A stretch of 64,000 bases of DNA from a virus: positions 1 through 64,000 of IMG/VR virus record IMGVR_UViG_3300045988_165974. One strand, given 5' to 3'. Shown piece by piece: positions 2,019 to 42,031 of the stretch. The notes under the pieces are model-generated. The model had not been told where the DNA came from and ran no database searches. It was given only the letters and a program-made list of their open reading frames with translations. Every line of letters starts with the position of its first letter. The stretch's first letter is position 1. The translations under genes were made by a program, and so were the position numbers.

Positions 2019-2029
2019 ATTTTCTCTCC

Positions 2030-3169
2030 TTATCCTTCATAGATTTCTGCTTTTGCATACCATTTTCCGTTTGTATATGTAAAGTTTATTTCAAGTAAAC
2101 CATCATTATCTACATTTGGTTCATTTAACCAAATTACTTTTGGAAATGTCATAGTTGTGCTACTAAGAACATTTAAATATAAAGTTATTTTACTAAATGT
2201 TTCTATACTTGGTAATGCAATAGTAGTTGCTGCTGACAATGTTGATAATTGATTTCTATCTTCTGTAAGTGTTAATACATCATCAACAGGAGTTATCACC
2301 TTTACTTCTTCTCCTAAAGGAATAATTTTCTTTGTCGTTCTATCATATTTATATAATTTAAAAACTTCTTCATTAAAACATCTAACAACTTTTAAGTATT
2401 GTTTAGATGCATAAGTTACATATAAATAATTTTTACCTTCTAATTCATAAGGAACTCCTTCATTAAAATCTTGAATACTTCCTTCTATTAGGTAAGTTCC
2501 TTTCTTTAAGTCTTCAATTACAATAGGGAAATCATCTGTTCCTACTTTAATAATATATCCTTTCGATTTGTCTAATTCTTTTAATTTCTTATCTGTTTCT
2601 ATTTTATGGTTTATAAGGTCATAGATAGCTTGTTCTATTTGATTTAATTTAGAATCTGTTATAATATCTCCTGCTACCCATATCTTTAAATTATAAGTTC
2701 CATCTGCATTATAGATTGGAATTTCTTTTCCTAATTTAAATATTTTGCAATTATCTACTTCACTTGTATTAACTTCTCCTAATGCTAAAGTTTTTTCAGA
2801 GACTGGACTTTCTTCATATGTCATAGGAAATGGGGGCAATATAGTTGAAATACCTCTATCGTTATAAAGTCGAATATATATATTGTATTTTCCAAAATTA
2901 GACATATTCCCAATTATTTCATTTGTCAGAGTAAATAAAACTCTGTTTTCAATAACTGGAGTTATATCCCCAACTATTTCGTTTCCAAACATATCAATAA
3001 GAACTATATCACTATATATATATTTATGTTTAGAAATCTTTAAAGAAGGACTGTCAATAATCTTAAATAAAATATCAATACCTTTTTCATGTTGTGAAAT
3101 GAATAATTGTTCACTTAACAAGCTTTCTTTATTTTGTATAGTTAGAACATATTCTTTTTCTAAAGACAT
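2030..3169 (-). CDS. hypothetical virion protein (possible receptor-binding / tail fibre component)
   Basis: 379-aa ORF tightly packed between the fibre-like protein and the lysin. No recognisable motif; call is positional only. Confidence 0.35.
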   Translation of the reverse strand: MSLEKEYVLTIQNKESLLSEQLFISQHEKGIDILFKIIDSPSLKISKHKYIYSDIVLIDMFGNEIVGDITPVIENRVLFTLTNEIIGNMSNFGKYNIYIRLYNDRGISTILPPFPMTYEESPVSEKTLALGEVNTSEVDNCKIFKLGKEIPIYNADGTYNLKIWVAGDIITDSKLNQIEQAIYDLINHKIETDKKLKELDKSKGYIIKVGTDDFPIVIEDLKKGTYLIEGSIQDFNEGVPYELEGKNYLYVTYASKQYLKVVRCFNEEVFKLYKYDRTTKKIIPLGEEVKVITPVDDVLTLTEDRNQLSTLSAATTIALPSIETFSKITLYLNVLSSTTMTFPKVIWLNEPNVDNDGLLEINFTYTNGKWYAKAEIYEG

Positions 3170-3177
3170 TTTTTCAC

Positions 3178-4701
3178 CTAACTTTCTAATTTACTTACTC
3201 TTTCTGCCAATGCTTTGTATTCATTAGACAGAGTAGTGTAATTATTATTTAATGTTTCATATTTTTTATTTAGTGATTCATATTTGGTTTTTAAGTCATC
3301 TACTTGTTTTTGAAGGTCTTCTTTGATTTGCTTAAGGGCGGTTTCATTTGTTGTATTACTAATTTGATTTATACAACTGACAAGTTTTGAATCAAGAACA
3401 TTACAAGCACTTCTAAATTCTGTAAGGGTATAAGTAAGTCTATTTCCATCACTAGAATCTAGCTCTAAATCCTTTAGCCTATTTATTACGACATCTGCAA
3501 AATCATTATATCTAGCTATAAAGCTTTCGTAAGCTGTTTTAAGGTCTTTTTTTATCGCATCTGTTGTATTCTTATTTGAATAATACGATTGGTAAATTCC
3601 TGTAACTTTATCTGTATATTCTTTTAAATTGACATTATAACTTCTTAAGCTTGAATATTGTGCATTTGTAACTACTCCACTATTTCTTCTAACTTCATTT
3701 GTTATTGCTATTATTTTATTTATTGTTGATTTTATAGAATTAAAATAATAATGAACATCTTGTTTTTCATTATCTGAATCATTCAAGACGGATTCTTGTA
3801 ATTCATTTAACTTTTCGATAGTATTATTCAGTCTCACAGTTATGTTATAAACTTCATCTGAAATAGTTCCCCCAGAACCTAGAAACAACAGCGAATTGCA
3901 AGAATCTTTTAAATTAGATAGAGAATTTAGCATATCATCTATACATATACTTACAATAGAAATATCAGAAGGAGTTACATCTTCATTTTTAGATAAGACT
4001 AAATCATTGATATTTGTAACTAATTGTGCAACAAGTTGTTCTAAAACTGTTCTATATTGAGAAACGGCTATGATTCCATCTTCGTCTTTATCTATATTAT
4101 CTTCTGCACACACTAAGTCTGCCAAAGCATCTGCACAGGCTAACACTCTAGTTGATTGGGTTTCTATATCTGTTGTTTTGGCATTTATGTCTGTTTTTTC
4201 AGAATCTATAAGCTTATTATCTTCAACATATGTATCTAATGTATTATTTAATGTAATAAGCTGAGAATTATAATTTATAATTAAAGTGTTTAATTCTTCT
4301 TTTATCTCTGAAAAACTTTTGTCTTGTTTATATTCATCTGAAAGTTCTTGAGTTTTAGTAGTTATTTCTGTAAGCTTTTGTTGATATGCCTCATTTTTAT
4401 TATTAAGAAGTTGAATCTTTTTTGTAATAACTTTTGAATTATATCCATCGAAAGTTAAAGTAATTTCTTCTGGGTTTATTTTTATAGCATTTCCGCTATT
4501 GTTTTTAATTATAAAAAATAAATTTTCTTTGATTTGTCTTGTATCTGTACAGAATAAATTTGAAGGATTTGATAAATCCCAATAAATATATTTTTTATCT
4601 GTATAGATATTATTTATTACATAAGCTTTATTATCATATGTAATGACTAAATTTTGTATATATATAAATCCCATATTGGGAATATTATCTAACAGAGCCA
4701 T
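3178..4701 (-). CDS. coiled-coil tail fibre-like protein
   Basis: 507 aa with long heptad-like low-complexity stretches (LNNKNEAYQQKLTEITTKTQELSDEYK..., C-terminal KYESLNKKYETLNNNYTTLSNEYKALAERVSKLES). Located downstream of the tail lysin. Confidence 0.45.
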   Translation of the reverse strand: MALLDNIPNMGFIYIQNLVITYDNKAYVINNIYTDKKYIYWDLSNPSNLFCTDTRQIKENLFFIIKNNSGNAIKINPEEITLTFDGYNSKVITKKIQLLNNKNEAYQQKLTEITTKTQELSDEYKQDKSFSEIKEELNTLIINYNSQLITLNNTLDTYVEDNKLIDSEKTDINAKTTDIETQSTRVLACADALADLVCAEDNIDKDEDGIIAVSQYRTVLEQLVAQLVTNINDLVLSKNEDVTPSDISIVSICIDDMLNSLSNLKDSCNSLLFLGSGGTISDEVYNITVRLNNTIEKLNELQESVLNDSDNEKQDVHYYFNSIKSTINKIIAITNEVRRNSGVVTNAQYSSLRSYNVNLKEYTDKVTGIYQSYYSNKNTTDAIKKDLKTAYESFIARYNDFADVVINRLKDLELDSSDGNRLTYTLTEFRSACNVLDSKLVSCINQISNTTNETALKQIKEDLQKQVDDLKTKYESLNKKYETLNNNYTTLSNEYKALAERVSKLES

Positions 4702-9896: not shown

Positions 9897-12800
9897 CTAA
9901 ACTCTACTGATAAGGTCATCAAAACAATTTTCAATTTGTTTCTTAACTTCTGTTGCTATTTCAGTTGGATTGCCTGTTCCAGTAACCTTAATTTCAATAT
10001 CTCCTACATTTAATGTTTTATTAGTAACTTTAGTTAATTTATCTGCATTTAAGGAAGCTCCTTTGCCATAATCAGTCAATCCTAATCCGTTTAAAATATC
10101 TGGATATTCTTTCATAATATCCATAGCTGCTTGAAGATTTCCAACAAGTTCTGTTTTAACTTTATCTGCCATGATTCCAATTGCATCTCCAGAGCTTTCT
10201 GCAAACTCTAGCATAGTATTTTGTAAATCACTAACTTCTCCATTGATAGATGTAAATAAACCTGTATTAAGAGCTTGAGCAACCATATCTGCAATCTTAC
10301 TATCTGTCCATTCTTCATCTAATTTAGTTTGAGCTTTTTCAGATTCATCTTGAATTCTTTCAATTTGTTTATCAAATAAGTCAGAAACCAATTCATCTTT
10401 TCTATTGTTTATAATGTCATCTAAACTCTTTTGTTCATCTTTTAAGTCATCTAAAAGTTCACTAACTTTCGCTTTTGCACTAAGACTATTATCTTTACTA
10501 TATCTATCTATGTTTTTATTTATTTCTGCAATCTTATCTTGTTGTTTCTTTAAATCTTCTTCATATGAATTAGTTTTCTTTTGATTTTCATAAGCTTCTT
10601 TAACTTTATTTATTGCCTCAACTTCTGCATCTGACTGTTTCTTAATTTCGTCTTTTCGTTTTTCGATTTGGTCTTTATAGATTTTTGTTATTTCATCTTC
10701 AATATCTTTTGTTATATCTAATTTATCGTCATAAATATCCTTAATTGTATTTCCAAGTTCTTCCCATTCTTTACGAGCATCAGGAAGTTTCCCTGTCTGA
10801 ATATCTATAAACTCTTCCATTAAATCAGTAACTTTTTCTAAATCCTCACTATTTTGTAATGCATCTAAGGCATCTTTTTGATTTGTAATATTATTATCTG
10901 AATCAAATTCAAATCCATATTTTCCTAAATCTTCTTTATATACTTTAATCATTTTATCATAGTTATCTATGAGTTGTTGTTGTTTGTCTTGTTGTTGTTT
11001 AAGTAAATCTATTTGTTGATTATATAATTTTAATTTTTCATTTCCGAAAGCATGTTGCATTTTTGTACTCAATAAATCATATTTATCTCCTAATATATCC
11101 AATTGAGTATCAATCTCTGTTATGCTATTTTTATACATATAAAGCTTATTTTCACGAACTAATTTTTCTATTTCATCATTATTTTCTGCAATCTTATTAT
11201 TAAGTTCTTCCCATTCATTACTAGCCTCAAATATTTTATCATTATGTAAATCTAAATATTCTTGTGCAAGATTCTTAACTTTGTCTAATTTTTCAGAATA
11301 TTCATCAGATGCTTTTTGAGCTGCATCTGCTTGTTTTTCTAATGACTTTTTAGTTTTTTTACTAGTTTCAGATTCTGCTTTTGCTTGTTTCTTAGCTTGT
11401 TTTATTTTTTCTTTTTGTTTTTTAGTTAATTTCTTGCTACTAGTATCATATTTATCACTATCAACACTACTACTTTTAGTTTCATAATTTGATGCTTTAT
11501 CAGATGCTTTTTTTGCCGCATCTTCTAATTCTTTTGCTTTTCTTTCCATTTTAAGCATAGTTTCTTCATATGCTCTTAAATTACCTTGTGCATCAAATTT
11601 AAAACCATAGTCTTTTAGATTCTCTCTAAGAACTTCTTTTTCTCTATATAGATTGTCATAAAGCTCTGATTGAAGTTTTTGTTGTTCTTCATATAATGCA
11701 TTTTGTTTTTCAAGATATTCTATCTTTTTAGTTCCAACGGCTCTTTCCATTTTAGTATCTAATAAAGTTAATTTATTATTTACTTTAGTGATTCTATTTT
11801 CAAGTTCTTGGAATAATTCTACTCCATATTCAATAGAATCTAATATGTTCTTCACAGATGTATTTATTTTTGTAGGAACGGTTGTATTAACTCCTATTTC
11901 TCCAAGGTCTAATCTAGTACTTTTTGATTTCATACTAACTTTAGAGATTGCTTTCGAAGTAGTTGCAAGTGTATCTGCATATGTAGAAATACCACTAGCT
12001 GTTTCATCTCCTATGGTTGGAGCTGATAATAACGAGATTCCTGGATTTGAAAATGTAGAAAATACAGCTGGAGTTTGATTTGTTGTTTCATCCATAGACA
12101 TTGGCCCATAAGCAGAACCTCCACTAGAACTGCTTCCACTACCACCACTACCACTACTACTTTGTCTATTTACTTTTAAAGTTGTAGTAAATGTTTTTCC
12201 TGCATATTTAGATACATAATCTGCTAAATTATTTTTAAGACCTGTAACATTTTTAGATGCCAAAGCCGTAATTGCATTAAATCTAGTAGTAAATGTTTTA
12301 TGATATCTTTTAACATAATCTGAAATATTTCTTTTAAGACCTGTAACGTTTTTAGATGCCTGTGCAGTTTCAGTCCTGAATGTTGTTTTAGGTGATTTCT
12401 TAACAGAGCTAATATATCTTTTTACATTATTTCTAAGTCCTGTGACATTCTTAGACGCTTGTGCAGTTTCTATGCGGATTGTTTTACTAGGCATGTCTTG
12501 GAAGGCTTTAGAAAGGTCATTAACACTTTTTGTTAATGTATCTAAATTATCTAGGGCATCCTTAGTGTCTGTTACGAATGATATTTTATATTCTCCGTCC
12601 TTAAGCTTAGTAGAATATTTAATTAATTCTTTATAATCTTCAACAGAACCTTCTAATTCTCCCTTATTAACTTTTACACTAACATCTTTTTTACTTGTTT
12701 CTTCTGCGGCTTTTCCAAGTTTTTCAGTTGATTTAGTAAGACTATCTATTTTTTGTTGACTGATACTTAAATTTCCATCTTTATCTAAGTCTATTCCGTA

Positions 12801-14369
12801 ATTTTTCTTTTGTTCGTCAGGTAATTTATTGAACCATTCAATAAAATCTTTAAGACTCATTCCAGAGAATTCTCCATAATTCTCTTCAATTAATTGCATA
12901 ACAAGTTGTTTTTTATCGTTAGGAAACATATTTATTATTTCTTCAAATAATTTCATGTTTTCTATTCCTTCAACTTTGCCCTCTATAAATAATTTTTTAA
13001 TAGATTTGCTATCGTTTAATGAACTAAATTCAGATAATTGATTCTCAATCGATTTCTTAACTTCCTCTTTATTATTAACTTTTGGGTCAACTGAAACATT
13101 CCATTGAACTCCTTTTCCTTTATTCCAGTCGTTCATTTGTCTTAACATATCTTGTGATAAAACAGTTTCTCCATTAAGTTGTAATCCAACTTTAAGATTT
13201 GCTATTTCGTCATCTGTAAGTTGTCCATTTAAAACTTTTCTTAAAATATCAGAATTTGTAGCATCAAATTCCCCTTCACTAGATACTTTTGTAACTAACG
13301 ATAAAGCGATTTGTAACTCTTGTTCTGAAACATTTTTTCCGTCATCTAAAGTTCCTTTTAATATTGATTGAACTTGTGGAGATAATTTGTCAAATCCCCC
13401 ACCGTCTCTCATATTAATTAAGAAATCTATAGATGCATCTTTATCTCCTTGGAATGAAGCTAAGTCACTTAATAATTGATTATTCGCATCCCATTGTGCT
13501 TTTAATTTAACAGTAAAATCATATGAGGGAGATTCGCTATCTATATAGTCTTGAAGTGAAACTCCATAATTTTTAAGGAATTCGTTTAAAGCTGCTTTAT
13601 CTCCTTCTAAACTACCATTAAATTCGGGAGTTAATCCTATAACCCAGTCTTCTGAACTGATATTAGTTACTTTAGCTAATTCATCTGCAACACCTTTTAT
13701 TGCATTTTTATAAGATTCCAAATCTCCTGTTTGTTGATAGGCACTTTGAGCTTTTCTTATTTTTTCATTCCAGTCATTGATAACATTACCTTGACCTTTC
13801 ATCGCCTCACTAATATCATCAAAAGCATCTATGAATTTATTTTTACCTGTTTCATCTAAAACAGGATTGCTTACCCAGTTAAAATTATTAACTAAGTTTT
13901 GCATACTTGCCTTAGCTTGGTCACTAAGTTTATCATAATTTTGAGAATAAAAACTATCAGAAAGCTTATTTATAACCTCTTGTTGAACTTCTTTATCTAT
14001 CTCTAATAACTCTTTATTTTTATCTGCTAATTCTTTATTGTATTCATCTGCTGCTTTATTTCTTTCAGTTAGGAATTTTATATAGTTATCTAAACCTGTT
14101 TTCATGTCAGTACTTTCACCAAAAGCAGATTTAAGTCCACTTATCGCACTGTTCATTTTGTCCAGTTTTGGAGCAGAATAAGTCCAACCATTTTTGATTT
14201 CATTTGCTCTAGCAGTCCCTGCATTTCCTAATGCATTTTCTTGAGTTTTTGTTAATCTTTCTTGTTCTTTTATTGTTTCTTGTAATTCTTTTTTGTAGTC
14301 TTCTAAACTACCAGTAAGTGCTAAAATGGGGTTCTGATTCTCGTCATACGGTTTCTTCATATAAGTTCG
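9897..14369 (-). CDS. tail tape measure protein, exon 4 of 4 (C-terminal ~1490 aa)
   Basis: Long coiled-coil ORF with three near-identical repeats (TAQASKNVTGL[RK]NN...), a GS-rich linker and repeated YGF[EK]FD[AS] segments. The frame stays open 9 nt upstream of the annotated ATG, up to the intron terminal G. The 5' boundary is uncertain by a few nt. Confidence 0.75.
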   Translation of the reverse strand, partial: RTYMKKPYDENQNPILALTGSLEDYKKELQETIKEQERLTKTQENALGNAGTARANEIKNGWTYSAPKLDKMNSAISGLKSAFGESTDMKTGLDNYIKFLTERNKAADEYNKELADKNKELLEIDKEVQQEVINKLSDSFYSQNYDKLSDQAKASMQNLVNNFNWVSNPVLDETGKNKFIDAFDDISEAMKGQGNVINDWNEKIRKAQSAYQQTGDLESYKNAIKGVADELAKVTNISSEDWVIGLTPEFNGSLEGDKAALNEFLKNYGVSLQDYIDSESPSYDFTVKLKAQWDANNQLLSDLASFQGDKDASIDFLINMRDGGGFDKLSPQVQSILKGTLDDGKNVSEQELQIALSLVTKVSSEGEFDATNSDILRKVLNGQLTDDEIANLKVGLQLNGETVLSQDMLRQMNDWNKGKGVQWNVSVDPKVNNKEEVKKSIENQLSEFSSLNDSKSIKKLFIEGKVEGIENMKLFEEIINMFPNDKKQLVMQLIEENYGEFSGMSLKDFIEWFNKLPDEQKKNYGIDLDKDGNLSISQQKIDSLTKSTEKLGKAAEETSKKDVSVKVNKGELEGSVEDYKELIKYSTKLKDGEYKISFVTDTKDALDNLDTLTKSVNDLSKAFQDMPSKTIRIETAQASKNVTGLRNNVKRYISSVKKSPKTTFRTETAQASKNVTGLKRNISDYVKRYHKTFTTRFNAITALASKNVTGLKNNLADYVSKYAGKTFTTTLKVNRQSSSGSGGSGSSSSGGSAYGPMSMDETTNQTPAVFSTFSNPGISLLSAPTIGDETASGISTYADTLATTSKAISKVSMKSKSTRLDLGEIGVNTTVPTKINTSVKNILDSIEYGVELFQELENRITKVNNKLTLLDTKMERAVGTKKIEYLEKQNALYEEQQKLQSELYDNLYREKEVLRENLKDYGFKFDAQGNLRAYEETMLKMERKAKELEDAAKKASDKASNYETKSSSVDSDKYDTSSKKLTKKQKEKIKQAKKQAKAESETSKKTKKSLEKQADAAQKASDEYSEKLDKVKNLAQEYLDLHNDKIFEASNEWEELNNKIAENNDEIEKLVRENKLYMYKNSITEIDTQLDILGDKYDLLSTKMQHAFGNEKLKLYNQQIDLLKQQQDKQQQLIDNYDKMIKVYKEDLGKYGFEFDSDNNITNQKDALDALQNSEDLEKVTDLMEEFIDIQTGKLPDARKEWEELGNTIKDIYDDKLDITKDIEDEITKIYKDQIEKRKDEIKKQSDAEVEAINKVKEAYENQKKTNSYEEDLKKQQDKIAEINKNIDRYSKDNSLSAKAKVSELLDDLKDEQKSLDDIINNRKDELVSDLFDKQIERIQDESEKAQTKLDEEWTDSKIADMVAQALNTGLFTSINGEVSDLQNTMLEFAESSGDAIGIMADKVKTELVGNLQAAMDIMKEYPDILNGLGLTDYGKGASLNADKLTKVTNKTLNVGDIEIKVTGTGNPTEIATEVKKQIENCFDDLISRV

Positions 14370-15735
14370 CTACACTTATACAGTTCTCTTATGAACTTCC
14401 CTATGTTGCCATAGGAGTCGAGACTATATCTTCATCCTCATATGAGGAGCATACCTTTTCCATTTAAGGGGTTCTCACCCACTCGCTTGAGCCGTACTCC
14501 TATTGCCTATTTCAAGGCTACTCACCAATATAATTGGCTTTCGGATAGTCGTTGAAGTTTATTCTTGTTTATTATAAAATAGTAAATTTTCAGATAATAT
14601 TTTTTCAATATTTTTATAATCCCAATAAGGAATTCTAATTATTTTCCAATTATTTTCTTTAGCATATGTGTTTTTCCTTTTGTCATGTATTTTTAATCTT
14701 TCAAAACATTCTTTGTCTAATCTATTGTCGTAATGAAACTCTCCATCATATTCTATCCAAACTTTTTTATCGGGAATAATAAAATCTGGGCGAAGACGAT
14801 TTCCTCCTACTCCAATTAAGTCTTTAAAATACTCTTTATCATGAATATAATGTATTTTATTTTTATCCAAAAAATTCATTATTCTTTTTTCTCCTTTGGA
14901 TATTTTGCAATAAGGACAATCATCACTTGTTTTTAATTTATTCCAACTTCTTTCAAAAATATGTCCATTAGAACATTTTATTTTAAGTTTTTGATGTGCA
15001 TTGATATATTTTGTTGTTAACAATTGTAAATTTCTTTCTTTTAAAAATTTTTGAACTATAAATATATCAACACTATGTCTTCCGCCAAGACAATAAGGAC
15101 ATTCTATTTTATTTCCTCTTTCTAATAAATTTTTTGTTCTAAAAAACCTATGTCCGTTTTCACATTCAATTTCTAATTTTTCTTTTGCATTTTTATATTC
15201 TTTAGAAATAAGTTTAAACCCGTTTATTTCAACAAAATCTTTTATTTCTTTATATTTTGGTTTTCTGCTAATTGAACATTCTGGACATCTAGTTCCCTTT
15301 AAAGCAACATTTCCTTTGAAATTTTTAAAACAAACATCATAAATGTGTCCGTTTGGACACTTTATTTTAATTCTCGAATTTAATCCTTTTTCTTTTATCA
15401 TTTCAATATATTCATAATTATTATCTTCAACATATTTTCTTATAGTATCTTCATACCGAATCTTTTTCATGATATCACCTCCTATTGATTAATATTATCC
15501 AAAATTTTATTTTTACTTTTTTTATTTATAATAAATTTAGAATCTTACCTGCGTGATTACCTATTGTTACGATTACTTAGGATTTAACCTTATAATCAAT
15601 TTAATATTTTTTTCTGCTTTCGCAACATTCACACTTGCCATTTCTCGCTATGTTGTAGTATATTAAATATTAAGGATTTCCCGCAATTAAATATGTGTAC
15701 AAGGCTGGTTACCCAACCTCTTGGCTATATCACTA
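14370..15735 (-). mobile_element. group-I-like intron (TMP intron 3, family A) carrying a homing endonuclease ORF
   Basis: Interrupts the TMP frame. The 5' exon ends GGT. The intron ends ...GTGTAG. The non-coding flanks 14361-14558 and 15471-15732 are near-repeats of 16480-16626 and 17797-18050. The internal ORF has its own AGGAGG RBS. Confidence 0.65.
14559..15470 (-). CDS. intron-encoded homing endonuclease: tandem zinc-ribbon repeats plus C-terminal PD-(D/E)xK (Vsr/DUF559-like) nuclease
   Basis: Repeated C-x-x-GH...CP-x-C modules. The C-terminus RPDFIIPDKKVWIEYDGEFHY...IIRIPYW is shared with the ORFs at 16627 and 35726. RBS is AGGAGGTGATATC-ATG. Confidence 0.65.
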   Translation of the reverse strand: MKKIRYEDTIRKYVEDNNYEYIEMIKEKGLNSRIKIKCPNGHIYDVCFKNFKGNVALKGTRCPECSISRKPKYKEIKDFVEINGFKLISKEYKNAKEKLEIECENGHRFFRTKNLLERGNKIECPYCLGGRHSVDIFIVQKFLKERNLQLLTTKYINAHQKLKIKCSNGHIFERSWNKLKTSDDCPYCKISKGEKRIMNFLDKNKIHYIHDKEYFKDLIGVGGNRLRPDFIIPDKKVWIEYDGEFHYDNRLDKECFERLKIHDKRKNTYAKENNWKIIRIPYWDYKNIEKILSENLLFYNKQE

Positions 15736-16488
15736 ACCACTAACTAAATCAGGGAACATGTCTGCAACCTGTTGTTTTAAATCATTAAATCTTTCTAATT
15801 CATCGGAACTTAATTTAGTCTTACCTGCTAATTTATCATACTCTTTTGCAATACTACTAAGTGATTTAGCATTTTGTCTCAAACTACTAGTTTCACTTTG
15901 AGTAGTTTCTAATGAGCTTTTTATTTCATCGTGAGTATCTTTAAGTTTGTTTTTAGCCTCTATAAGCTTTTGAATTAACTTACTTAAAGCATACATAGCT
16001 AATCCAATTAAAGCTCCTTGTAAAAGTCCACTTGCAGTTTGTAGAAGTCTTTCTTTTAACATAAATTGTTGAGCTGCTCCACTAACTAAACCGAAAGAAG
16101 CTCTCAATTTATTCATTATTCCGACTTGTCCACTCATTGCTTGTCTTAAAGCACCCATTTTGGTACTTAGTCCAGTATAATAACTTAATTGTCTTGTCTG
16201 AACTCCGCCTACATTTTCAATATTAACACTAGCTCCCCATACTTTACTTAATGACTTAAAAGCAGAAACTACTGCTAATATAGTAGGAACAGTTGAACCC
16301 ATTTTGTTCATCCAATTTACTAAGCTTTGTATTTTTTCAGATATAGCAATTAATACATCTACTCCACTCTTTAGTGATTCTCCACTAAGAATAGTTGTAA
16401 AGACATCTGTCCAAATTGTTTTCAATTCGTTTAATTTACCAGCTAAAGAATTTACATATCTTTCATTCGTTATGTTCATATAGACTCG
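15736..16488 (-). CDS. tail tape measure protein, exon 3 of 4 (hydrophobic core segment)
   Basis: NERYVNSLAGKLNELKTIWTDVF... followed by hydrophobic stretches typical of TMP cores. Bounded by family A intron sequence on both sides. Length 753 nt, phase 0. Boundaries are uncertain by a few nt. Confidence 0.7.
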
Positions 16489-18059
16489 CTACATCTATAC
16501 AGTTCTCTTATGAACTTCCTTATCTTTCAATAAGTGTCCAGACTATTTCTTCACCTTCACCATTATGTGTTAAGGGCATACCTTTTCCATTTAAGGGGTT
16601 CTCACCCACTCGCTTGAGCCGTACTCCTATTGATGTGATTTAACATCCCCTGGGATAGTCGTTGAAGTTTGTTCTTGTTTATTACAATTTAAAAGTTTTT
16701 CTGTTAAGATTTGTTCTATGTTATCATAATTAAAATATGGAATTCTTAATAAATCAATGTTATTTTGTTTACAATAAATATTTTTTATTGTATCTCTAAT
16801 TTTTATTTCAATAAAATCGTCAATTTCATTATAAAAACTATCAATCTCATAATGTTGTTTTCCATCATATTCAATACATAAATTTAAAGAAGGAATATAA
16901 AAATCAAATGGAAGTGGTCTTTTGTATTTACAATCTTTAAACTTATATTGTTCAATATATTCAATATTATTATTATTTAAAAAATTAGAAATGCTTGTCT
17001 CCCCTTTAGATTTATTACAAATCGGACACCTGTTTCCACTATAAAAATGATTTAAATCAGAAGTATAAATATGTCCTTTACCGCACTTAAATTTAATTTT
17101 TGTACTTCCGTTAATATATTCTTCTTTCGGAGTCAATATTTTAAATCCAAATTTCTCAATATATTCTACTCTTTTTTCATAAGGAATTATTTTTTTCTTT
17201 CCTCTATTTAATTCAAAACAATTAGGACATCCACTCCCTGATTTTAAATTATGAATTGTAGGATAAAATATATGATTACATTTTTTACATTTAACTTTAA
17301 TTGGTAAATCATTTGATTTATAATCTTCATCTATCCATTCCAAATTTTTTAACTGTAAAATTTTTAGAATGGATTCTTTATTTAATCTTTGTTTACTTAC
17401 AACTTCTTCTGTTGCACATTTTTTACATTTATGTCCTTTAAATAAATCTAATGGAATTTGATAATATATATGACCTTTGTCGCATTGGATTTTGCATTTA
17501 TCAGAAGCTTTGGTGTATTCGTCTTTTGAAGTCAATAATTTATATCCTAAATTAGCTATTTTATTTTTTACTTCTTCATAAGGCATTATTTGAGCTTTTG
17601 TAAGAATGTTTTTAATACAATTATTACACATGTATTTTTTACTTTTATTCATGACTTTTAAAGTTTTTTCAAATACGTTTCCGCATTTGCATTTTATTTT
17701 TAATGTAGTTGTTGTATTTTTATATTCAGATAATAATTTACATCCATGTTTTTCTAATAAAATTTTAACTTCTTCTTGAGTATATCTTTTCGACATATCA
17801 TTCCTCCTTTCTATATTTTAATTATAACATAAATCTAACCTTTTGTAATAAATTTAGAACTTTACTTGCATGAACTTCCATTGTGATATAATAATTACTT
17901 TAATTATATCTAGGCACTTAGGATTTAACCTTATGCCTATCCTTACTTTGTTTCTACTTTCGTCCCATCATATTGTGATTTCTCCAATATTGTGGTGTAA
18001 GGCTCTTAGGTTGTACCTGCAATTAAATATGTGTCCTATGCACATTTCTGTACATACGG
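16489..18059 (-). mobile_element. group-I-like intron (TMP intron 2, family A) carrying a homing endonuclease ORF
   Basis: Its non-coding parts are homologous to TMP intron 3 (shared ACACATATTTAATTGC, AAGGTTAAATCCTAAG, GGAGTACGGCTCAAGCGAGTGGGTGAGAACCCCTTAAATGGAAAAGGTATGC on the minus strand). It ends ...GATGTAG. The 5' splice site is ambiguous (18059/18060 or 18086/18087). Confidence 0.6.
16627..17796 (-). CDS. intron-encoded homing endonuclease: zinc-ribbon repeats plus PD-(D/E)xK-like nuclease (paralog of 14559..15470)
   Basis: 389 aa. It has five or more Cys-pair modules and the C-terminus RPLPFDFYIPSLNLCIEYDGKQHY...LLRIPYFNY. RBS is AAAGGAGGAATGAT-ATG. Confidence 0.65.
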   Translation of the reverse strand: MSKRYTQEEVKILLEKHGCKLLSEYKNTTTTLKIKCKCGNVFEKTLKVMNKSKKYMCNNCIKNILTKAQIMPYEEVKNKIANLGYKLLTSKDEYTKASDKCKIQCDKGHIYYQIPLDLFKGHKCKKCATEEVVSKQRLNKESILKILQLKNLEWIDEDYKSNDLPIKVKCKKCNHIFYPTIHNLKSGSGCPNCFELNRGKKKIIPYEKRVEYIEKFGFKILTPKEEYINGSTKIKFKCGKGHIYTSDLNHFYSGNRCPICNKSKGETSISNFLNNNNIEYIEQYKFKDCKYKRPLPFDFYIPSLNLCIEYDGKQHYEIDSFYNEIDDFIEIKIRDTIKNIYCKQNNIDLLRIPYFNYDNIEQILTEKLLNCNKQEQTSTTIPGDVKSHQ

Positions 18060-18179
18060 AGAATGTTGTTTCTCTTGTTCGGCAGAACCAAATTGTTCTC
18101 CATTTGCAAATTCTTCTCTTAATTCCATGAATTTATCATAGTTTTGCATTAAGGCTTGAAAGACTGTAGCTTGCTGTTT
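18060..18179 (-). CDS. tail tape measure protein, exon 2 of 4 (micro-exon, ~31-40 aa)
   Basis: Own translation of the minus strand: KQQATVFQALMQNYDKFMELREEFANGEQFG(SAEQEKQHS). It joins ...LSEAIAG from exon 1 to give the TMP-core-like AIAGKQQ..FQALMQNYD. Absent from the ORF track because it has no start or stop. The 3' end may instead be 18087. Confidence 0.6.
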
Positions 18180-19348
18180 CGATTGTTATTAACATGAAGT
18201 TTTTTATCTTCATCTCTGGAGGTTTCCCTCATTTGATAAAATAGCCAATCTTATCTTATCGGTTGGTCAATTCCAACCCAGTCTAGCATATCTTTTGTAC
18301 TCATAACTTAAACCTCTAAGCAACGAGGACTCTTGGAGATATTATATTCTGTATAACAGTTTCAATCTCTATGCGTTGCATGTGTTTAGTCTTTTAAAAC
18401 TATCGAAATATATCACTATATCTCTAGGTTTCCCAACTTCCATTCGGATTAGCAGTTAAGCCTTTCCGTTTTCTTCCTCGTTTCTCTCTCAACTCTTCAG
18501 AGGTAGTTGAGTTGAGTGGGCAAAATTATAATTATTTTATAAGTTTTTATATTTTTTGTATTTTTCATATTTTCGGTCTAAATAAATATTACTATTTGCA
18601 TAAATAAAATCAAGAAAAGATTCTATTTTTTGTTTTTCTCCAACAACAATTCTATATACTTCTTTACTTTTTGTTTTTGCAGAATATATTCTATTTTTAT
18701 CTATATTTGTTATTTTACATATATTTTCCAACATATCTTTAGTTCCAATTATATTAATTTCAAAAGTTTTATTTGTCCAACAAAAACAACCATCCCCATC
18801 GAAATATCCTCTAATAAAATGCCTTTGAAGTTCTTTGGGAACTTTATCCTCGTTTGGAAACATTAAAGTCAAAGATTTTTTGGGAATACACCCTAGATTT
18901 ATTAAAGCTTGATGCATATGTCTATTTTTAAAGCTAATTCGACATTTTATATCATTAATAACTATTTTGCCATCCCAATTTAAAAAATTTTTAAATTTTT
19001 GAATATGAGATTTATCTCTAACAGAAAGACCTATCTCTATATCTGTTCTATTATTGTTTCCAATGCAACCATCTGCATATAAAAAACCTAACCAATATGC
19101 TTTTTCTTCATTATCAATTTTATCGAACACATTTTCTTTTATAGTTTTCTTGTGTGGCAATCTTTTTACTTCAATTCCTTGCTTTTTTAAATATGTTGAA
19201 AATCTTCCTCTTGATATTTTTAAATCTTTAGAAATGCTACATAAAGATTTTCCATTTAGATACATTTCTTTTCCTAATTCATATTTATTATTCATATTTA
19301 TCTCCTATTTTTTATTTTTTAACTTATATTATAATTATAACCATATTT
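18180..19348 (-). mobile_element. group-I-like intron (TMP intron 1, family B) carrying a LAGLIDADG endonuclease ORF
   Basis: The 5' exon ends GCAGGT. The intron ends GTTAATAACAATCG. Its 3' 350 nt (18180-18536) is homologous to 35491-35725 and 38428-38677. Confidence 0.65.
18537..19295 (-). CDS. intron-encoded LAGLIDADG homing endonuclease (two-motif) with N-terminal HTH
   Basis: AYWLGFLYADGCI and FIRGYFDGDGCF are two LAGLIDADG motifs. The N-terminal SISKDLKISRGRFSTYLKK looks HTH-like. Close paralog of 37251..38087 (shared FDKIDNEEKAY.LGF.YADG). Confidence 0.8.
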   Translation of the reverse strand: MNNKYELGKEMYLNGKSLCSISKDLKISRGRFSTYLKKQGIEVKRLPHKKTIKENVFDKIDNEEKAYWLGFLYADGCIGNNNRTDIEIGLSVRDKSHIQKFKNFLNWDGKIVINDIKCRISFKNRHMHQALINLGCIPKKSLTLMFPNEDKVPKELQRHFIRGYFDGDGCFCWTNKTFEINIIGTKDMLENICKITNIDKNRIYSAKTKSKEVYRIVVGEKQKIESFLDFIYANSNIYLDRKYEKYKKYKNL

Positions 19349-22318
19349 ACCTGCTATAGCTTCTGATAAAGCTAATTGTTCGTCTTCCTTTAGGTCGCCC
19401 CATTTTCCTTTTACTTCATCTAGTAATTCAACGAATCCTTTTACTTCTCCCTTTTGTTTGTCAGAATATACATCTATACCTGCAATTTCTCTTAAACCTT
19501 TTGCCGTTTTATTAAGTTCCATTGTCCCTTCTTTGGCATTAGTTTTAAGACCTTGTAAATTTATTGCAATAGATTTCATACCATTACCGACACGGCTACC
19601 ATTTTGTAATGATGTATTGGCAGCAGTAATCATTGCAGTAGCATCTCCTATTTCAACACCATAGTTAGATAAAACTGCACCCCCACCTTGGAAGGCTTGT
19701 ACTAAGCTTTGCATATCTATTGCCTGTGTATTCGATGCATAATTCAATTTATCCATAGCATCGCTAAGTTCAGTAGTAGTTTTAACAGTATCTCCTACTT
19801 GGACTTTATATTCTTTAAGTGGCTCTAAGTTAAATGAGTTTACTATTGTATTTAATCCCTTAGATGCCTCGTCTTGGCTCATATCCCCTACATTTGCTAA
19901 CATCATTGCATTTTTAGCAACCTGCATAGATTTTTCCATAGAACCAATACCTGCTTGTAATGCACTTGCGATACCTTCGATAGTATCTGCCGTACTCATA
20001 CCAACAGATTTACTTATTTCTTCTGCTTTGTCTTGTATTTGTCCTAATTTATCTATAGTGTTTATATCTTTTATGTCTGCAACTTTTTTCATGTCTGTGA
20101 TTGCTGCATCTAAATCAGAATAAACATCTTTAATTTTATATATAGAAGTTGTAAGGGCATTCCCTAAGACATTCCCAAGTGAGAAAGCTCTAATTGAACC
20201 AGAAAAATCAGACCAAAAACGATTACTGACTCTTATTGTTGAATTAGTTCTATTCATTTGGCTTTGGAATCTTCTAAGTTGAGAGTTTGCTTCTGCATAC
20301 ATCGTTTCAAAAGAACCACCAACTTGTCTTGCCTCTGTTTCAACTTGATTTAATTTAGTTATAAATTCATTAACAGTTCCTGTACCAAAAGCCTTTTCGA
20401 TATCTTCTTTAAGTGTATTAAATGTACCTTGAAGAGTATTGAATTTCTTTAACTGTCCAACTATTGTATTAGCCTTACTTCCAACCTCTGCTAAATCCGT
20501 CTTAAATCCATCTAATGAAGTGTCAAATGTTGCATCCATATTTTGAGCTTTAGTTCTAAGTTCATCTAATGCAGTTTGTAATCTATTTACTTCTGCATCT
20601 CCAAATGCCGTTCTAATAGCCTCTTTAAGCCTAATGAAAGCAGTTTCTTGTGTAGTTACCTTTCTTAGACTAGCCTCGATTGTGCTTGCCTTAGCTGCTG
20701 TTGAGTCTATTTCTGCTTTTAGTGATTCAAAAGTACTTCTGAAATCTTCTTTTAAAACAGATGCTGCTGTTCCTAATTGATTTAACCTATTTCTAAGTTC
20801 ATTTGCTTTTACATCTCCAAATGCACTTCTGATTGAATTTTCTAATTTGTCAAATTTGTCTGATAAATTATCTACATCTCTAAGATTTTTTATAGCAGTA
20901 TCTATTTTCTCCAACTGGGACATATCTGCTTTAAAATCCATGTTAAGAGCTTTTCTATTATTTATTTCATCTAATTTAGTTTTTAATTTATCTATTGCTA
21001 CCTGATTAGTTACAGTAACTCTAAGATTTCCTAAATTAGATTTTACTTTAGTTACTTTTTCATCTAATTCAATTAAATTAGAAATACTCTTTTCTAATGT
21101 CGCCTTGTCATTTTTAGAGGATAAATCTATTTTTTGTTTATTGACATCTGCTATTTTCTGTTCAACATTATTTAAATCAGTTATTAAATTCTTTAGTTTT
21201 TCATCTAAAATAGTATATGTTTCAGAAGACATATTAGTGTTTTGCATTTTACTTTTAAGTTTTTCTATTTCAGAATTAAGCATTTTATATTGATTTATAA
21301 GATTTGTTTGTTCAAGGCTATCTGCCTTTTTCATTTGACTTATAAATTCATTTGCTTTAGTTTCTGATTCAGATAATTCACTTTTTAAGGAATTAAAAGC
21401 TACTTCAAAACTTCCATCTAATTCTAATGCAGTTTGAGATAACTGATTTAATTTATTTTCAAGGTCTACTACTGCACTATCTCCTAACCCATCTTTAATA
21501 GATTGTTTTATTTTATCAAAACTTTCTTTTAAGGTTTCAACTTTTCTTAAATTATCTACTTGAGCGCCTAATTCTTTTAACCTATTTAAGTCATTTGAAA
21601 CATCAAGATTTAAATGCCAATCTCCTGTAACCTTACTCTTCAATGTATTTATTTCAGTCATTATAGTAGAAAGTTGACTTGTATTCCCACCGAAAGTAAT
21701 CCCTTTTGTTTTGGACTCAATTTCAGTTATTTTGTCGTCCATTTGTTTCATAGTATTTACTAAAGTTACTATCTCTTGTTGACTTCTTTTAAAATCATAT
21801 AGGGCAATTTTCTTTTTGCTTGTTTCGTCCATTTGTGTAGATAAGGCATCCATGTTTGCTTGAAGTTGTTTAGCTTCTTCGGCTGCTTTTTGAAATAAAT
21901 CTGCACTCATACCTGACTTCATTTTCTTTTGAATGGAATCCAAAGCACTTGCCAATGACTTATACTTAGAAATTAATTCTGTTTGATTTGATGCTACTTT
22001 TTTTGTCCCACTATCTGAATCTAAGTTTTTCATTTTAGATTTAACATTTTCTAATGAATCAGAAATTGTTTTAAGATTTTTAGCAAGACTTTCAAAATCA
22101 CTTATAACACTTTTGTCAAATTTAATTCCGTCTTTCATTTGTTTTTCAAGTTTATCTAACAAATCAGAAACTGTCTTTAGTTTTGTTTCAAAATCTTCAA
22201 CATTAACTTTAAGTTTTAAAGGTTCTTTCTTTGCAGATTCTTGAAGTTTTTCCAACTGCTCTTTTGCAGTTTTGTCATCTAACTCTAATTTAGTGGTTAG
22301 TATAAATTCTTCTGACAT
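19349..22318 (-). CDS. tail tape measure protein, exon 1 of 4 (N-terminal 990 aa)
   Basis: Coiled-coil N-terminus, then the TMP core (...MLANVGDMSQDEASKGLNTIVNSF...LSNYGVEIGDATAMITAANTSLQNGSRVGNGMKSI...QLALSEAIAG). The last 9 codons of the track ORF (KYGYNYNIS*) are intron read-through. Confidence 0.8.
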
Positions 22319-27756: not shown

Positions 27757-28746
27757 CTATCCTATATTATATACTCCAAAGTCAGTAGCTTTTACTGCTC
27801 CTACATGTACTTTTCTTTGGAATAGGTATTCTAATTCTCTATCTAATCTAGGTAATATAGAACTATCAGTAGTAACATATCCTGGACCTTCAAATCCTAC
27901 GAATATCGGCTTAACATTAGCAGGTACTACGAATAATTTATCATTACTTAAACCAAAACCAGTTTTCTTATTAAAAGTATTTTTTAAGTCTACACATCTA
28001 TATCCTTCAAATGCTTTTAAATAACCATAATTTCTTCTATCTAATCCATCTATTTCTAATGATTCTATTCCTGGTATTTTACTTAATGCCATTTTAGTAC
28101 CATATATAGTTATATCTCCATGTCCTAATCCTGCAACTTTTTCACATAATTCAGATAAAGCATCTCTAGTTACAGTACCATTAGCTTGTAATATTGCTGG
28201 AGCTGCACTATAAGCACCTATGAAAGCACTATTTATTCTTTTTACTAATTCATGTTCCATAGATTTAGCAACTTTGTCTATCATAGCTTGGAAATTTATT
28301 CTTCCTGCCATCCATTTAGACCATTGTTCATATATTTTAACACCTAGAGGATAAGCAGTCATAGGAACTTTTCTTCCCATTAATCTTTGTCTTCTAAAGT
28401 TGTTATTATCGTCTGCTACTACTGCAACATCAAATAATTTATCATCGTCTACTTCCCATTCAATTGTGTCCCCATATTTAAGGTCTCTGTATTCACAGAA
28501 TGGTGCAAATGTTTCTCTTAATAATTCAGAAGTAGTTATTGTTAATGATTCAGATAATATTTGGAATACTTCTACATAATTTTTAGAGAATGCCCATTCG
28601 TCCCAAGTTCCTCCTACTTTTTCTAATATTTTTTCTCTTAATCTATCTTCGGCTTCTTGAGTACTAGAAAATTCAGCTTTATCTACTGTTCCATTATAGA
28701 TGTCTCTAGCTAATTTTTCCATATCTGTATATTTTACTATTGCCAT
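27757..28746 (-). CDS. putative major capsid protein
   Basis: 329-aa ORF downstream of the protease/scaffold, followed by a strong terminator. Size and position fit an HK97-type major capsid protein (MCP). No motif check was possible. Confidence 0.6.
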   Translation of the reverse strand: MAIVKYTDMEKLARDIYNGTVDKAEFSSTQEAEDRLREKILEKVGGTWDEWAFSKNYVEVFQILSESLTITTSELLRETFAPFCEYRDLKYGDTIEWEVDDDKLFDVAVVADDNNNFRRQRLMGRKVPMTAYPLGVKIYEQWSKWMAGRINFQAMIDKVAKSMEHELVKRINSAFIGAYSAAPAILQANGTVTRDALSELCEKVAGLGHGDITIYGTKMALSKIPGIESLEIDGLDRRNYGYLKAFEGYRCVDLKNTFNKKTGFGLSNDKLFVVPANVKPIFVGFEGPGYVTTDSSILPRLDRELEYLFQRKVHVGAVKATDFGVYNIG

Positions 28747-28749
28747 TGA

Positions 28750-28950
28750 ATTTCCGTTACTTAAAACTTATAAAAAGTTCTAAATTTATTTTTCTTTTCA
28801 CTCTATCTTATATTGCCAAAGCTACTTTAGTAATTGATAGTCCAAGAACGTAAATTCCCCATCAACGAGTGGGTACATATTATAAATATCTTTTAATGTG
28901 ATAGTCCATAATTTCTTAAATTAAGACTTGCATTTAAATCTCTATCTATT
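28750..28950 (-). ncRNA. candidate TnpB omega/reRNA (3' end of tnpB plus downstream 146 nt)
   Basis: By analogy with IS200/IS605 TnpB loci, the guide RNA overlaps the 3' end of tnpB and the right end. The region contains hairpin-prone GTACCCACTCGTTGATGGGGAATTTAC. Boundaries are not determined. Confidence 0.35.
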
Positions 28951-30020
28951 TCTAATCCACAACTACATTTATAAACTCTATCTGATAATTTTAAGTCTTT
29001 CTTAATGTTTCCACAACTACTACATATTTTACTTGATGGATAATATTTATCAACTTGTATGAATTTAATATCATTCCATTCGCATTTATATTTCATTTGT
29101 CTTATAAATTCACATAGGTTCTGTTGTTGAATAGCTTTAGATAAATGTTTATTTTTCATCATATTAATTATACTTAAATCTTCCATTACTACCTTACATG
29201 GTTTGGTTTTCACTATTTGAGTAGTAACTTTATGAGTATAATCAAGTCTTATATTTTTTAATTTACGATAAAGTTTCTTGAGTCTAATTTCTAACTTTTT
29301 AATATTATTAGTTTTTAAGTAACGTCCTCCTTTCTTATTTTTTAAATATTTTTTACTTATTTGTCTTTGTAACCTTTTTAACTTCTTTTCTAGTTTTTTA
29401 ACAGTATGAGTTTTATTTATATTTTTAAACTTCATATTATTACTAAGTATTGCTAAATCTTTTACTCCTAAATCAATTCCTAATACTTTTTGTGTAAGTT
29501 CGTCTACTTCTTTTTCTACTTCTAATCCAAATGTTAAAATCCAACATCTGCCATTGTAATTTACATACGGATTTTTAAAAGAATTTATTTTGGTAAAATC
29601 AATTTTATAGTTAGATTTATATTTTACTTTTCCTATTTTTTCTAAATTAACTACATTCTTTTCATAAAATTTTATTTTATCATATCTACTATAAAAACTT
29701 AATTTTGTTTTTTTCTTACTTTTAAATTTAGGTAGATTAGATTTCTGTTTGTAAAAATTTGAATATGCTTTATCTAAATTCCTTAAAGACTCTTTCAAAG
29801 TCGCATTTGATATTTCATATAACCATTGGTTTTCTTTTTTATAAATAGTTAACATTCTCCCTAATTCTGTACAAGAATATTTCTTTTTCTCATTTTTATA
29901 TAATTCATTGTTGAGATTTAATGCCCAATTATAGACATATCTTTGACATCCAATATGCTTATAAAATAAAGTTTCTTGCTCTTTTGTTGGATATAATCTA
30001 ATTTTGAATCCTTTTATCAT
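28893..30020 (-). CDS. tnpB: TnpB (IS200/IS605-family OrfB, RuvC-like RNA-guided nuclease)
   Basis: N-terminal FKIRLYPTKEQ is typical of OrfB. RuvC triad candidates are GIDLGVKD, VVMEDL and EIDRDLNASLN. Zinc finger is CSSCG...CSCG. 375 aa. Confidence 0.85.
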   Translation of the reverse strand: MIKGFKIRLYPTKEQETLFYKHIGCQRYVYNWALNLNNELYKNEKKKYSCTELGRMLTIYKKENQWLYEISNATLKESLRNLDKAYSNFYKQKSNLPKFKSKKKTKLSFYSRYDKIKFYEKNVVNLEKIGKVKYKSNYKIDFTKINSFKNPYVNYNGRCWILTFGLEVEKEVDELTQKVLGIDLGVKDLAILSNNMKFKNINKTHTVKKLEKKLKRLQRQISKKYLKNKKGGRYLKTNNIKKLEIRLKKLYRKLKNIRLDYTHKVTTQIVKTKPCKVVMEDLSIINMMKNKHLSKAIQQQNLCEFIRQMKYKCEWNDIKFIQVDKYYPSSKICSSCGNIKKDLKLSDRVYKCSCGLEIDRDLNASLNLRNYGLSH

Positions 30021-30409: not shown

Positions 30410-30877
30410 TTATAAGAAATCTATTAATATTGAATCTTGTCTGTCGAATAAATCAACATCTATTTCTGCAACTATTCCTATTGCATCTTCTAATCCTTCT
30501 GCTTTTGCATATTTACCTAAATTAACTGTATCAGGTTTTACATAGTCTCCAACTGCTAATCCCTCTGGGAAGAATTTTTTAGCTATTGTGTATTCATCAA
30601 AGTTATCAACTGGTAATACTCTTCCTGGGTATCCTTTTTCTAAACAGTAATCAGAATCATCTAATCTTTCGTCATACATTAATGTAGAACAGTCAACTAT
30701 TGCTATTCTATCTCCAGCAGCATATTGTCCAATTTTATAACATTCTCTTTCACCTTTTGCATAGCCTTTTATTCCAACTATCATACCATTTTCTAATGGA
30801 GTGTTTTCTTCATGTAAAGCACTTAATGGTTTTGGATAAGGCACTCTATCTTTTCTTAATAATGCATATTTTCCCAT
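30410..30877 (-). CDS. hypothetical head protein (possible decoration protein)
   Basis: 155-aa ORF between the protease/scaffold and the capsid gene (before the TnpB insertion), followed by the hairpin AGCAGTC-TTTT-GACTGC + T-run. Confidence 0.35.
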   Translation of the reverse strand: MGKYALLRKDRVPYPKPLSALHEENTPLENGMIVGIKGYAKGERECYKIGQYAAGDRIAIVDCSTLMYDERLDDSDYCLEKGYPGRVLPVDNFDEYTIAKKFFPEGLAVGDYVKPDTVNLGKYAKAEGLEDAIGIVAEIDVDLFDRQDSILIDFL

Positions 30878-40858: not shown

Positions 40859-40872
40859 TTGTTTCTCACCTC

Positions 40873-41986: not shown

Positions 41987-42007
41987 ATAATATCTTTATA
42001 AAAAAAG

Positions 42008-42030: not shown

Positions 42031-42031
42031 C

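Follow-up and report, generated by a model that had tools for sequence, protein, structure and literature searches.

Positions 22318 to 9897 on the minus strand of the IMG/VR virus record IMGVR_UViG_3300045988_165974 very probably constitute a single gene for the tape measure protein (TMP) of an SPbeta-like siphophage with a Clostridium-type host, whose conserved core has been colonised by three mobile group I introns. The analysed stretch, referred to here as the window, comprises positions 1 to 64,000 of that record, and its TMP gene carries three introns together with three endonuclease genes. An earlier note, made from the letters of the sequence, had proposed one such gene with four exons and three endonuclease-bearing group I introns. 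This proposal is borne out by relatives that lack either the introns or their endonuclease genes, and by distant TMPs that are continuous. Each transcribed intron would fold into a group I ribozyme and leave by the usual two transesterifications; we infer that ligation of the four exons would then create an 8262-nt frame and a TMP of 2753 aa.

The identity of the gene is indicated by its domains, its neighbours and its relatives. In Pfam, PF10145 (phage minor tail/TMP core) matches residues 762-990 of the first large open reading frame (ORF) over the entire profile (positions 1-201 of 201; 3e-23), and the end of this match coincides with the end of exon 1, ...AIAG, the very sequence that the earlier note had described as TMP-core-like. 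The NCBIfam model TIGR01760 (TMP TP901 core, 349 positions) aligns with exon 1 alone at positions 4-242 (80 bits). Against the corrected spliced product, the alignment extends over positions 4-346 of 349 (110 bits), crosses junctions 1 and 2, and continues into exon 3, which holds hydrophobic segments typical of TMP cores. Hydrophobic segments thus come after the core defined by PF10145 and TIGR01760, and the gene has the position expected of a TMP gene, after tail chaperone genes and before Dit/Tal: chaperone-position ORFs are found upstream, while the downstream genes encode Dit (phrog_33) and a minor tail protein of 1335 aa (phrog_6211). A tblastn search with the joined product matched annotated tape measure proteins, including yomI (SPbeta family), and SPbeta-type neighbours (YonD, YonB, YomW and YomU) occur at homologous loci. 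Taken together, the Dit and minor tail neighbours, the tblastn matches and the SPbeta-type neighbours identify the gene as the TMP gene of an SPbeta-like siphophage. The remaining structural module around it is intact. The metagenome-assembled genome (MAG) that yielded one near-identical contig is labelled uncultured Clostridium sp. If the whole 2753-aa chain acts as the ruler, extrapolation at 0.15 nm per residue would give a tail length of about 410 nm.

All features of the TMP gene described here and below are on the minus strand. The ORF listing contains large ORFs at 19319-22318, 15733-16479 and 9897-14360, and gap ORFs between them at 18537-19295 (252 aa), 16627-17796 (389 aa) and 14559-15470 (303 aa). 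Strong Shine-Dalgarno sequences precede all three gap ORFs (AGGAG, AAGGAGG and AGGAGG, respectively), in agreement with the idea that every gap houses a free-standing endonuclease gene with its own ribosome-binding site (RBS). Outside the ORF list there is an open 40-codon stretch at 18060-18179, starting KQQATVFQALMQNYDKF, which the earlier note had recognised as a micro-exon; its existence between introns 1 and 2 is supported by TMP homologues that align with it without gaps.

The corrected map is as follows. Exon 1 (22318-19349; 990 codons) begins with the ATG at 22318, after GAGGAGG, and ends ...SEAIAG, with U at 19349. It is followed by intron 1 (19348-18180), a group I intron of 1169 nt with its omega G at 18180. 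Exon 2 is a micro-exon of 36 codons (18179-18072; KQQATVFQALMQNYDKFMELREEFANGEQFGSAEQE) with the last codon GAG, and has neither a start codon nor an RBS. Intron 2 (18071-16468), with 1604 nt and its omega G at 16468, is a group I intron of IA2-like Twort/c-st type. Exon 3 (16467-15736; 244 codons) runs from NERYVNSLAGK... to ...FPDLVSG, with U at 15736, and precedes intron 3 (15735-14349), a 1387-nt group I paralogue of intron 2 with its omega G at 14349. Finally, exon 4 (14348-9897) begins YDENQNPILALTG and comprises 1483 codons plus the stop. The corrected coding sequence has 8262 nt and 2753 aa with no internal stops, and its junctions at the protein level read AIAG/KQQA, SAEQE/NERY and DLVSG/YDEN (here and below, a slash within a sequence marks the splice site).

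These boundaries were placed by comparison with relatives. Exons 1 and 2 are continuous in L002, P0002 and P0003; the alignment with L002, a Logan contig, reaches 19346 and then jumps to 18179, and exon 2 aligns gap-free to intron-less TMPs. The gaps in L002 match both ends of intron 1 (19348-18180) and the 5' site of intron 3 (15736/15735), all three of which the earlier note had placed exactly. The start of exon 4 is defined by the alignments with L002 and with the MAG contig L025, both of which restart at 14348. In the case of intron 2, comparison between L003, which has the intron, and its close relative L006, which does not, places the split after AGAGAG(AA), and hence the intron between ...GAG and AAU.... 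Intron-less homologues show no gap against the corrected joins. An alignment with such homologues had been suggested by the earlier note; it upholds a single continuous gene but shifts three of the six boundaries, as discussed below.

The introns and their endonuclease genes are polymorphic among genomes that are at least 98% identical in their exons (the window, L002 and L025), as expected for mobile introns. L002, 98.4% identical to the window, is missing exactly 19348-18180 and 15735-14349, and intron 2 is its only intron. A suspected extra intron in this contig, after ...DETGK, was rejected; it is merely a frameshift between adjacent frames. In L025 (98.6% identical), intron 3 is absent and introns 1 and 2 are kept as ORF-less forms, the deletions removing just the endonuclease genes (19342-18525 in intron 1, 17855-16689 in intron 2); its copy of intron 2 has 442 nt and lies in the same exon context. 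Intron 1 is absent from L003 too, and is ORF-less in L007. Introns 2 and 3 are both absent from L006, L007, L008 and L001. TMPs that read through all three junctions are found in L006, L007, L008, Clostridioides phage LIBA2945, a Sarcina MAG and Peptostreptococcus. On the insertion sites mapped here, the conserved TMP core is an intron hot-spot, with at least five insertion sites across the relatives examined. In LIBA2945 (MF547663; L001 9331-9613), the TMP is interrupted at a further site, ...AAMDMLN/YAGNNYA..., by an ORF-less member of the intron 1 family with 283 nt; GenBank labels the two TMP halves of this phage 'ATPase' and 'hypothetical protein'.

Detection of the ribozymes themselves required comparative work. 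A search with the Rfam group I models, also suggested by the earlier note, gave no matches with Rfam 15 at the gathering threshold or at E up to 10 in the whole window, in 14000-19800, in 18175-18540 or in L001-L005. The negative result is uninformative, because an ORF-less intron annotated in GenBank as 'Group I catalytic intron' (L004 1448-1764), used as a control, likewise went undetected even at E up to 1; comparative structure was therefore used instead. The predicted folds of all three introns contain a P3-P8 core with the P3/P7 pseudoknot, a P4-P6 domain and P9. Each has its omega G, and P10 is formed by AAA with UUU in intron 1, AAUG with CAUU in intron 2, and UAU with AUA in intron 3. 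The U·G wobble at the cleavage site is present for introns 1 and 3, with the boundaries set by L002.

For intron 1, the alignment consisted of the window sequence, L006, the ORF-less L007 and the compact L008. The 68 pairs of the model are paired in 97% of cases, versus 32-41% in slid controls, and 19 of them, distributed over P2, P3, P4, P5, P6, P7.1, P8 and P9, show compensatory changes. P1 (19346-19351 with 18519-18524) pairs GGU/AAA with the guide UUUGCC and includes the U·G wobble. In the comparative fold, P2 is located at 18488-18516, P3 at 18475-18482 with 18322-18329, P8 at 18307-18320, and P9 at 18261-18278. P7 is formed by GCAUA (within 18367-18374) and UAUGC (within 18283-18290). 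A different 5' strand for P7, GACUA at about 18390, was rejected; the compact L008 intron shows that GACUA is the 3' arm of P6. The core of intron 1 resembles those of introns in AR9/PBS1 and in Yersinia phage phiR1-37. The compact intron of L008 (about 11890-13140) occupies AIAG/K, and there, as judged by eye, the U at -1 seems to be paired with A (GCUGGU/AA with UUAUUAGC).

Introns 2 and 3 are paralogues, with P1 and guide sequences re-tuned to two different sites in the TMP gene; they are 76% identical over their 3' 238 nt, and the spacing between P1 and P2 is equal in both. In blastn, the core of intron 3, with its ORF removed, matched 424 phage records, including Staphylococcus Twort-like phages, AR9/PBS1 (12-18 copies each), Brochothrix A9 and C. 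botulinum c-st/D-1873. No further copies of the family were found in the window by blastn with both window introns and seven relatives as queries. Their common structure was derived from an alignment of both introns, with the ORFs deleted, and six ORF-less relatives. Here, 59 pairs (P2, P4, P5, P5a, P5c, P6, P7, P9, P9.1 and P9.2) are 86.7% paired versus 33-40% when slid, 27 pairs show compensatory changes, and none of 500 shuffles did equally well. The P3 pseudoknot can be formed in nine out of nine sequences, in each with its own sequence but always in the canonical place, directly 5' of J3/4-P4, with the 3' strand followed at once by P8. P6 covaries as well, with AUUCU pairing with AGAAU in intron 3 and GUUCU with AGAAC in intron 2.

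In intron 2, P3 is formed by 18025-18031 with 16577-16583, P4 by 18016-18022 with 17865-17870, P6 by 17852-17860 with 16664-16675, and P7 by 16656-16664 with 16540-16545; P8 is at 16554-16576 and P9.2 at 16479-16499. The equivalent elements of intron 3 are P2 (15703-15718), P3 (15689-15695 with 14450-14456), P4 (15680-15686 with 15548-15553), P6 (15535-15543 with 14554-14565), P7 (14546-14554 with 14421-14426), P8 (14435-14448) and P9.2 (14360-14380). P1 of intron 3 (15733-15739 with 15722-15727) pairs UGGU/UA with UAGCCA, and has the U·G wobble and a GUGA loop.

Intron 2 appears to have a 5' splice site of a different kind. The comparison of L003 with L006 permits only GAG/, GAGA/ and GAGAA/; none has U at -1, and GAG/ alone leaves an intron with a terminal G. 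With this boundary, P1 (within 18068-18074 with 18059-18063) is GAG/AA-acaaca-UUCUC, and together with P10 (AAUG with CAUU) it provides seven continuous pairs with the ligated exons. The G at -1 pairs with a guide C, and there is no wobble. P2 (18039-18054) covaries, from UGUACA-gaaa-UGUGCA in the window to UGUCGA-gaaa-UCGGCA in L003, and compensatory changes are also seen in L017.

This arrangement is not confined to the window. A search with AAACAAYATTCTCCGTATGT found 10 IMG/VR contigs and 4 MAG contigs that carry the intron; a fifth MAG match, L027, is unrelated. Overall, about 20 contigs represent three exon contexts and have in common GAG/AAACAAYAUUCUCC, a G at the intron end, and AAU or AAC at the start of the 3' exon. 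In carriers, the GAG of the 5' exon encodes the Glu of the TMP motif GS-x-x-x-E/N-x-x-Y, and the exon bases further upstream vary. A second site in the TMP gene, approximately 15 codons upstream, also holds an intron of the G-type, i.e. one inserted after G. In L020 (9357-10165), both sites are filled by tandem ORF-less G-type introns of 384 and 383 nt, with a micro-exon of 45 nt between them. At this second site, the intron-less allele in L014 and L021 reads GAGAAGGAA/AAT, and the occupied site in L020 reads GAGAAAGAG/. The G:C pair at -1 is retained when the surrounding sequence changes: L064, found in a looser search, has the exon ...AAG/ with the guide CUU, and in L035 the exon ...GAGG/ faces the guide CCUC; the L035 gene is not a TMP gene, and removal of the intron restores its ORF in frame.

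P2, P3 and P6 covary inside the G-type lineage, which argues that these introns are not decaying elements, and intron 2 does not differ from U-type relatives in its catalytic core (P7, J8/7). A remodelled 'wobble receptor' in J4/5 and J5/4 (GGUAA for GGAAA) was considered and rejected, since the same J4/5 sequence is shared by canonical members of the lineage with GGGU/ paired with GCCC (L043, L062, L104 and L107); it would follow that the ribozyme core tolerates either pair. On balance, intron 2 probably represents a natural and widespread lineage of phage group I introns that choose a 5' site after a G in Watson-Crick pairing with a guide C, and that dispense with the U·G wobble. No description of natural group I introns that do not follow U was found in the literature searched, the coverage of which was incomplete, so that this is no proof of novelty.

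The three gap ORFs encode two kinds of homing endonuclease. That of intron 1 (18537-19295; 252 aa; own RBS AGGAG) lies in the P1 loop and is a LAGLIDADG enzyme, with matches to LAGLIDADG_3 in Pfam (4e-9) and to phrog_4645 'endonuclease' (8e-58), and with two LAGLIDADG motifs in one chain (LGFLYADGC and IRGYFDGDGC). The genes in introns 2 and 3 both occupy the P6 loop, and their products are paralogous (35% identity, 4e-40). The intron 2 enzyme (16627-17796; 389 aa) has four zinc-ribbon modules followed by a putative C-terminal I-Bth0305I-like (EDxHD/PD-(D/E)XK) nuclease domain, matches DUF4379 and CapR zinc fingers in Pfam as well as phrog_559, 9084 and 7140, and the 3' end of its gene overlaps P6', P7 and P7.1. 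The intron 3 enzyme (14559-15470; 303 aa; RBS AGGAGG) has three such modules and the same predicted nuclease domain. The zinc-ribbon modules of both are of the treble-clef type.

Assignment of the nuclease domain relies on a structural model. Searches of PDB sequences with endonucleases of the intron 2/3 type gave no match, and a fold search with the full-length model returned only noise; the isolated C-terminal domain alone gave a meaningful match. For this domain (114 aa of the intron 3 enzyme; AlphaFold model with pLDDT 81), the best PDB match in Foldseek was 3r3p_B, the catalytic domain of I-Bth0305I, with a probability of 1.00, TM 0.60/0.68 and 20% identity. All three paralogues of the window conserve the motif IEYDGxxHY(D/E). 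The nuclease domain of both enzymes is thus predicted to be I-Bth0305I-like (EDxHD), by a match that is weak by E-value. Presumably, the endonucleases would cut intron-less alleles during co-infection, leading to homing.

Three other explanations of this locus were weighed. According to the first, the boundaries lie where the earlier note had put them, with intron 2 between 18060/18059 and 16489/16488, intron 3 ending at 14370/14369, U before every intron, and a product of 2771 aa. These joins are in phase and stop-free, and the expected bases are indeed present at all six claimed boundaries, U at the end of each 5' exon and G at the end of each intron, so that the canonical U is kept throughout. 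However, the model adds 11 aa (KQHSRVYMNIT) at junction 2 and 7 aa (RTYMKKP) at junction 3, and these are missing in every intron-less homologue; likewise, the alignments with L002 and L025 restart at 14348 and not at 14369. Each claimed 3' site is 21 nt too far upstream, within the loop of P9.2, a covarying hairpin with the sequence UAUAAGU-guagcga-ACUUAUA in intron 3 and UAUAGAU-guagcga-GUCUAUA in intron 2. The claimed 5' site of intron 2, 12 nt too far downstream, clashes with the covarying P2 hairpin: it needs the guide AGAAAUGU, which is the loop and 3' arm of P2, and which becomes AGAAAUCG in L003 with compensation in the other P2 arm and no change in the exon. The model is therefore highly improbable in this exact form. 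The sites should be moved to 18072, 16468/16467 and 14349/14348; phase compatibility is preserved, but the product has 2753 aa, the micro-exon has 36 instead of 40 codons, and the junction of intron 2 would follow a G.

It is also conceivable that intron 2, without the U·G wobble, is spliced poorly or not at all, and that the TMP is produced as two polypeptides or the prophage is decaying. In favour of this, the pair at the cleavage site, G:C, is a non-canonical one (PMC2504315, PMC4227781, PMC12355055), and gene callers begin a protein (P0001) at 16479, with an ATG that is in frame with exon 3 and lies 12 nt before it. Yet this ATG has no Shine-Dalgarno sequence and is buried in hairpin P9.2. 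Furthermore, about 20 diverged contigs with three exon contexts share the G-type P1, and the compensatory changes found in P1, P2, P3 and P6 point to selection for a functional ribozyme; U-type relatives have the same catalytic core (P7, J8/7); and the other structural genes of the module are intact. This explanation is considered unlikely. Still more difficult to sustain is the notion that there is no splicing, with the three endonuclease genes as intron-less, free-standing mobile genes between four separate tail genes. Annotation pipelines do call the pieces as separate genes, but exon 2 has no start codon or RBS, and one Pfam/TIGRFAM domain is broken at AIAG and resumed in exons 2 and 3. 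In addition, the flanking non-coding RNA has a conserved and covarying group I structure, and ORF-less versions of the same insertions exist. The notion is barely tenable.

Several points weigh against the preferred reading of one TMP gene with three mobile group I introns, the second of which is cut after G. Splicing is deduced from comparative genomics. Rfam detects no group I intron at the TMP region or at related loci, although little weight is attached to this given the failure of the control. In neither alignment does the sequence of P7 change (introns 2 and 3 pair GACUA with UAGUC, and intron 1 pairs GCAUA with UAUGC), so that it shows no covariation; this is consistent with a conserved guanosine-binding site. 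The match of the endonuclease domain with I-Bth0305I is weak by E-value (0.025). As regards intron 2, U at -1 is treated as near-universal and functionally critical (PMC2504315, PMC4227781, PMC1891724, PMC12355055); the U·G pair is regarded as near-universal, 'critical and highly conserved' (PMC4227781), which is contradicted by G:C at this position, and the Anabaena intron requires a pyrimidine at -1 (PMC12355055).

Other mobile elements are present elsewhere in the window. A second endonuclease cluster (34379-40969, minus strand) is found between the ORF at 39941-40969 and a Terminase_6C ORF at 34379-35461. It includes a 325-aa endonuclease with zinc ribbons and DUF2726 (35726-36703), a LAGLIDADG enzyme (37251-38087), and a GIY-YIG enzyme with a helix-turn-helix (HTH) domain (38678-39685). 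In the non-coding stretch 35480-35640, the sequence is very similar to the 3' portion of TMP intron 1. In view of this cluster and of the intron-1-like stretch, the gene for the large terminase subunit is probably likewise split, by about three introns. A TnpB of 375 aa (OrfB_IS605, Cas12f1-like TNB, HTH_OrfB_IS605) is encoded at 28893-30020 (minus strand) between structural genes at 30410-30877 and 27757-28746; the gap around it measures 1664 nt, versus 58 nt between the homologous genes of L006. The HNH endonuclease-associated RNA HEARO (RF02033) has a full-length Rfam match at 46207-46420 (minus strand; 103.9 bits versus a gathering threshold of 83). Rfam also matches tRNAs with large internal insertions at 46819-46936 and 42194-42330 (both minus strand), the first with about 50 nt at the anticodon loop. 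ARAGORN calls neither of these, and reports only five ordinary tRNAs, in 41913-44679.

The locus is of practical relevance, as annotation pipelines report this TMP as four to seven unrelated genes, and correct exon maps are needed for inferring tail length and host range. Genomes that are otherwise almost the same show introns, and likewise their endonuclease genes, being gained and lost. If the proposed G:C site of intron 2 is true, it offers a natural system in which to ask how dispensable the U·G wobble and its receptor are, and the 'must follow a U' rule would be relaxed for predicting group I insertion sites and for engineering.

Among known systems, the endonucleases of introns 2 and 3 recall I-Bth0305I (PDB 3R3P), a member of the EDxHD family that is typical of phage group I introns (PMC3984707). 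The window family keeps the motif E-x-D-x3-H-x-D/E, but differs in carrying three to four treble-clef zinc-ribbon repeats as the N-terminal DNA-binding part. The closest ribozymes in the annotated phage collection are the introns of C. botulinum c-st/D-1873 and of AR9/PBS1, with 76-83% identity over parts of the core. Within this collection, the annotated intron nearest to introns 2 and 3 is that of D-1873 (L004); unlike these, it lies outside a TMP gene, and with the IS605/TnpB-type transposase gene that comes after it (1448-3248) it makes up an IStron-like arrangement.

Three group I introns within one structural gene of a phage tail are also known from the Staphylococcus phage Twort, whose orf142 (tail tube gene) undergoes exon skipping between tandem introns (PMC11878797). 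The cores of tail-tube introns from Twort-like Silviavirus align with those of window introns 2 and 3, with P2-P9 shared and covarying. The host gene is another one, however, and the aligned Staphylococcus tail-tube introns (L010, L011) are short and ORF-less. P1 of Twort has the canonical U·G wobble (PMC1891724), unlike that of window intron 2.

The most similar arrangement is that of TMP-IVS1, IVS2 and IVS3, group I introns in the TMP genes of Bacillus cereus-group prophages (Tourasse and Kolsto 2008, PMC2504315). These are of IA1/IA2 types and occupy three sites, with up to two introns per gene (PMC2504315). In both cases, the target is the TMP gene of temperate Firmicutes siphophages, there are three insertion sites, and the presence of introns and endonuclease genes is sporadic among close relatives. 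IVS1 and IVS2 are furthermore paralogues with P1 and guide re-tuned to different sites, as are window introns 2 and 3. In contrast to the Bacillus genes, the window gene has three introns at once, all with intact endonuclease genes, and a 36-codon micro-exon between introns 1 and 2; its host lineage is an SPbeta-like phage with a Clostridium-type host. The Bacillus introns are stated to obey the U rule (PMC2504315), which window intron 2 does not. The presence of group I introns at three sites of TMP genes has thus been known since 2008, and the arrangement in the window is of this known sort. It is distinguished by three endonuclease-bearing introns in one TMP gene, by the 36-codon micro-exon, and by snapshots of intron and endonuclease gain and loss; what appears to go beyond the known arrangement is the predicted non-U 5' splice site of intron 2.

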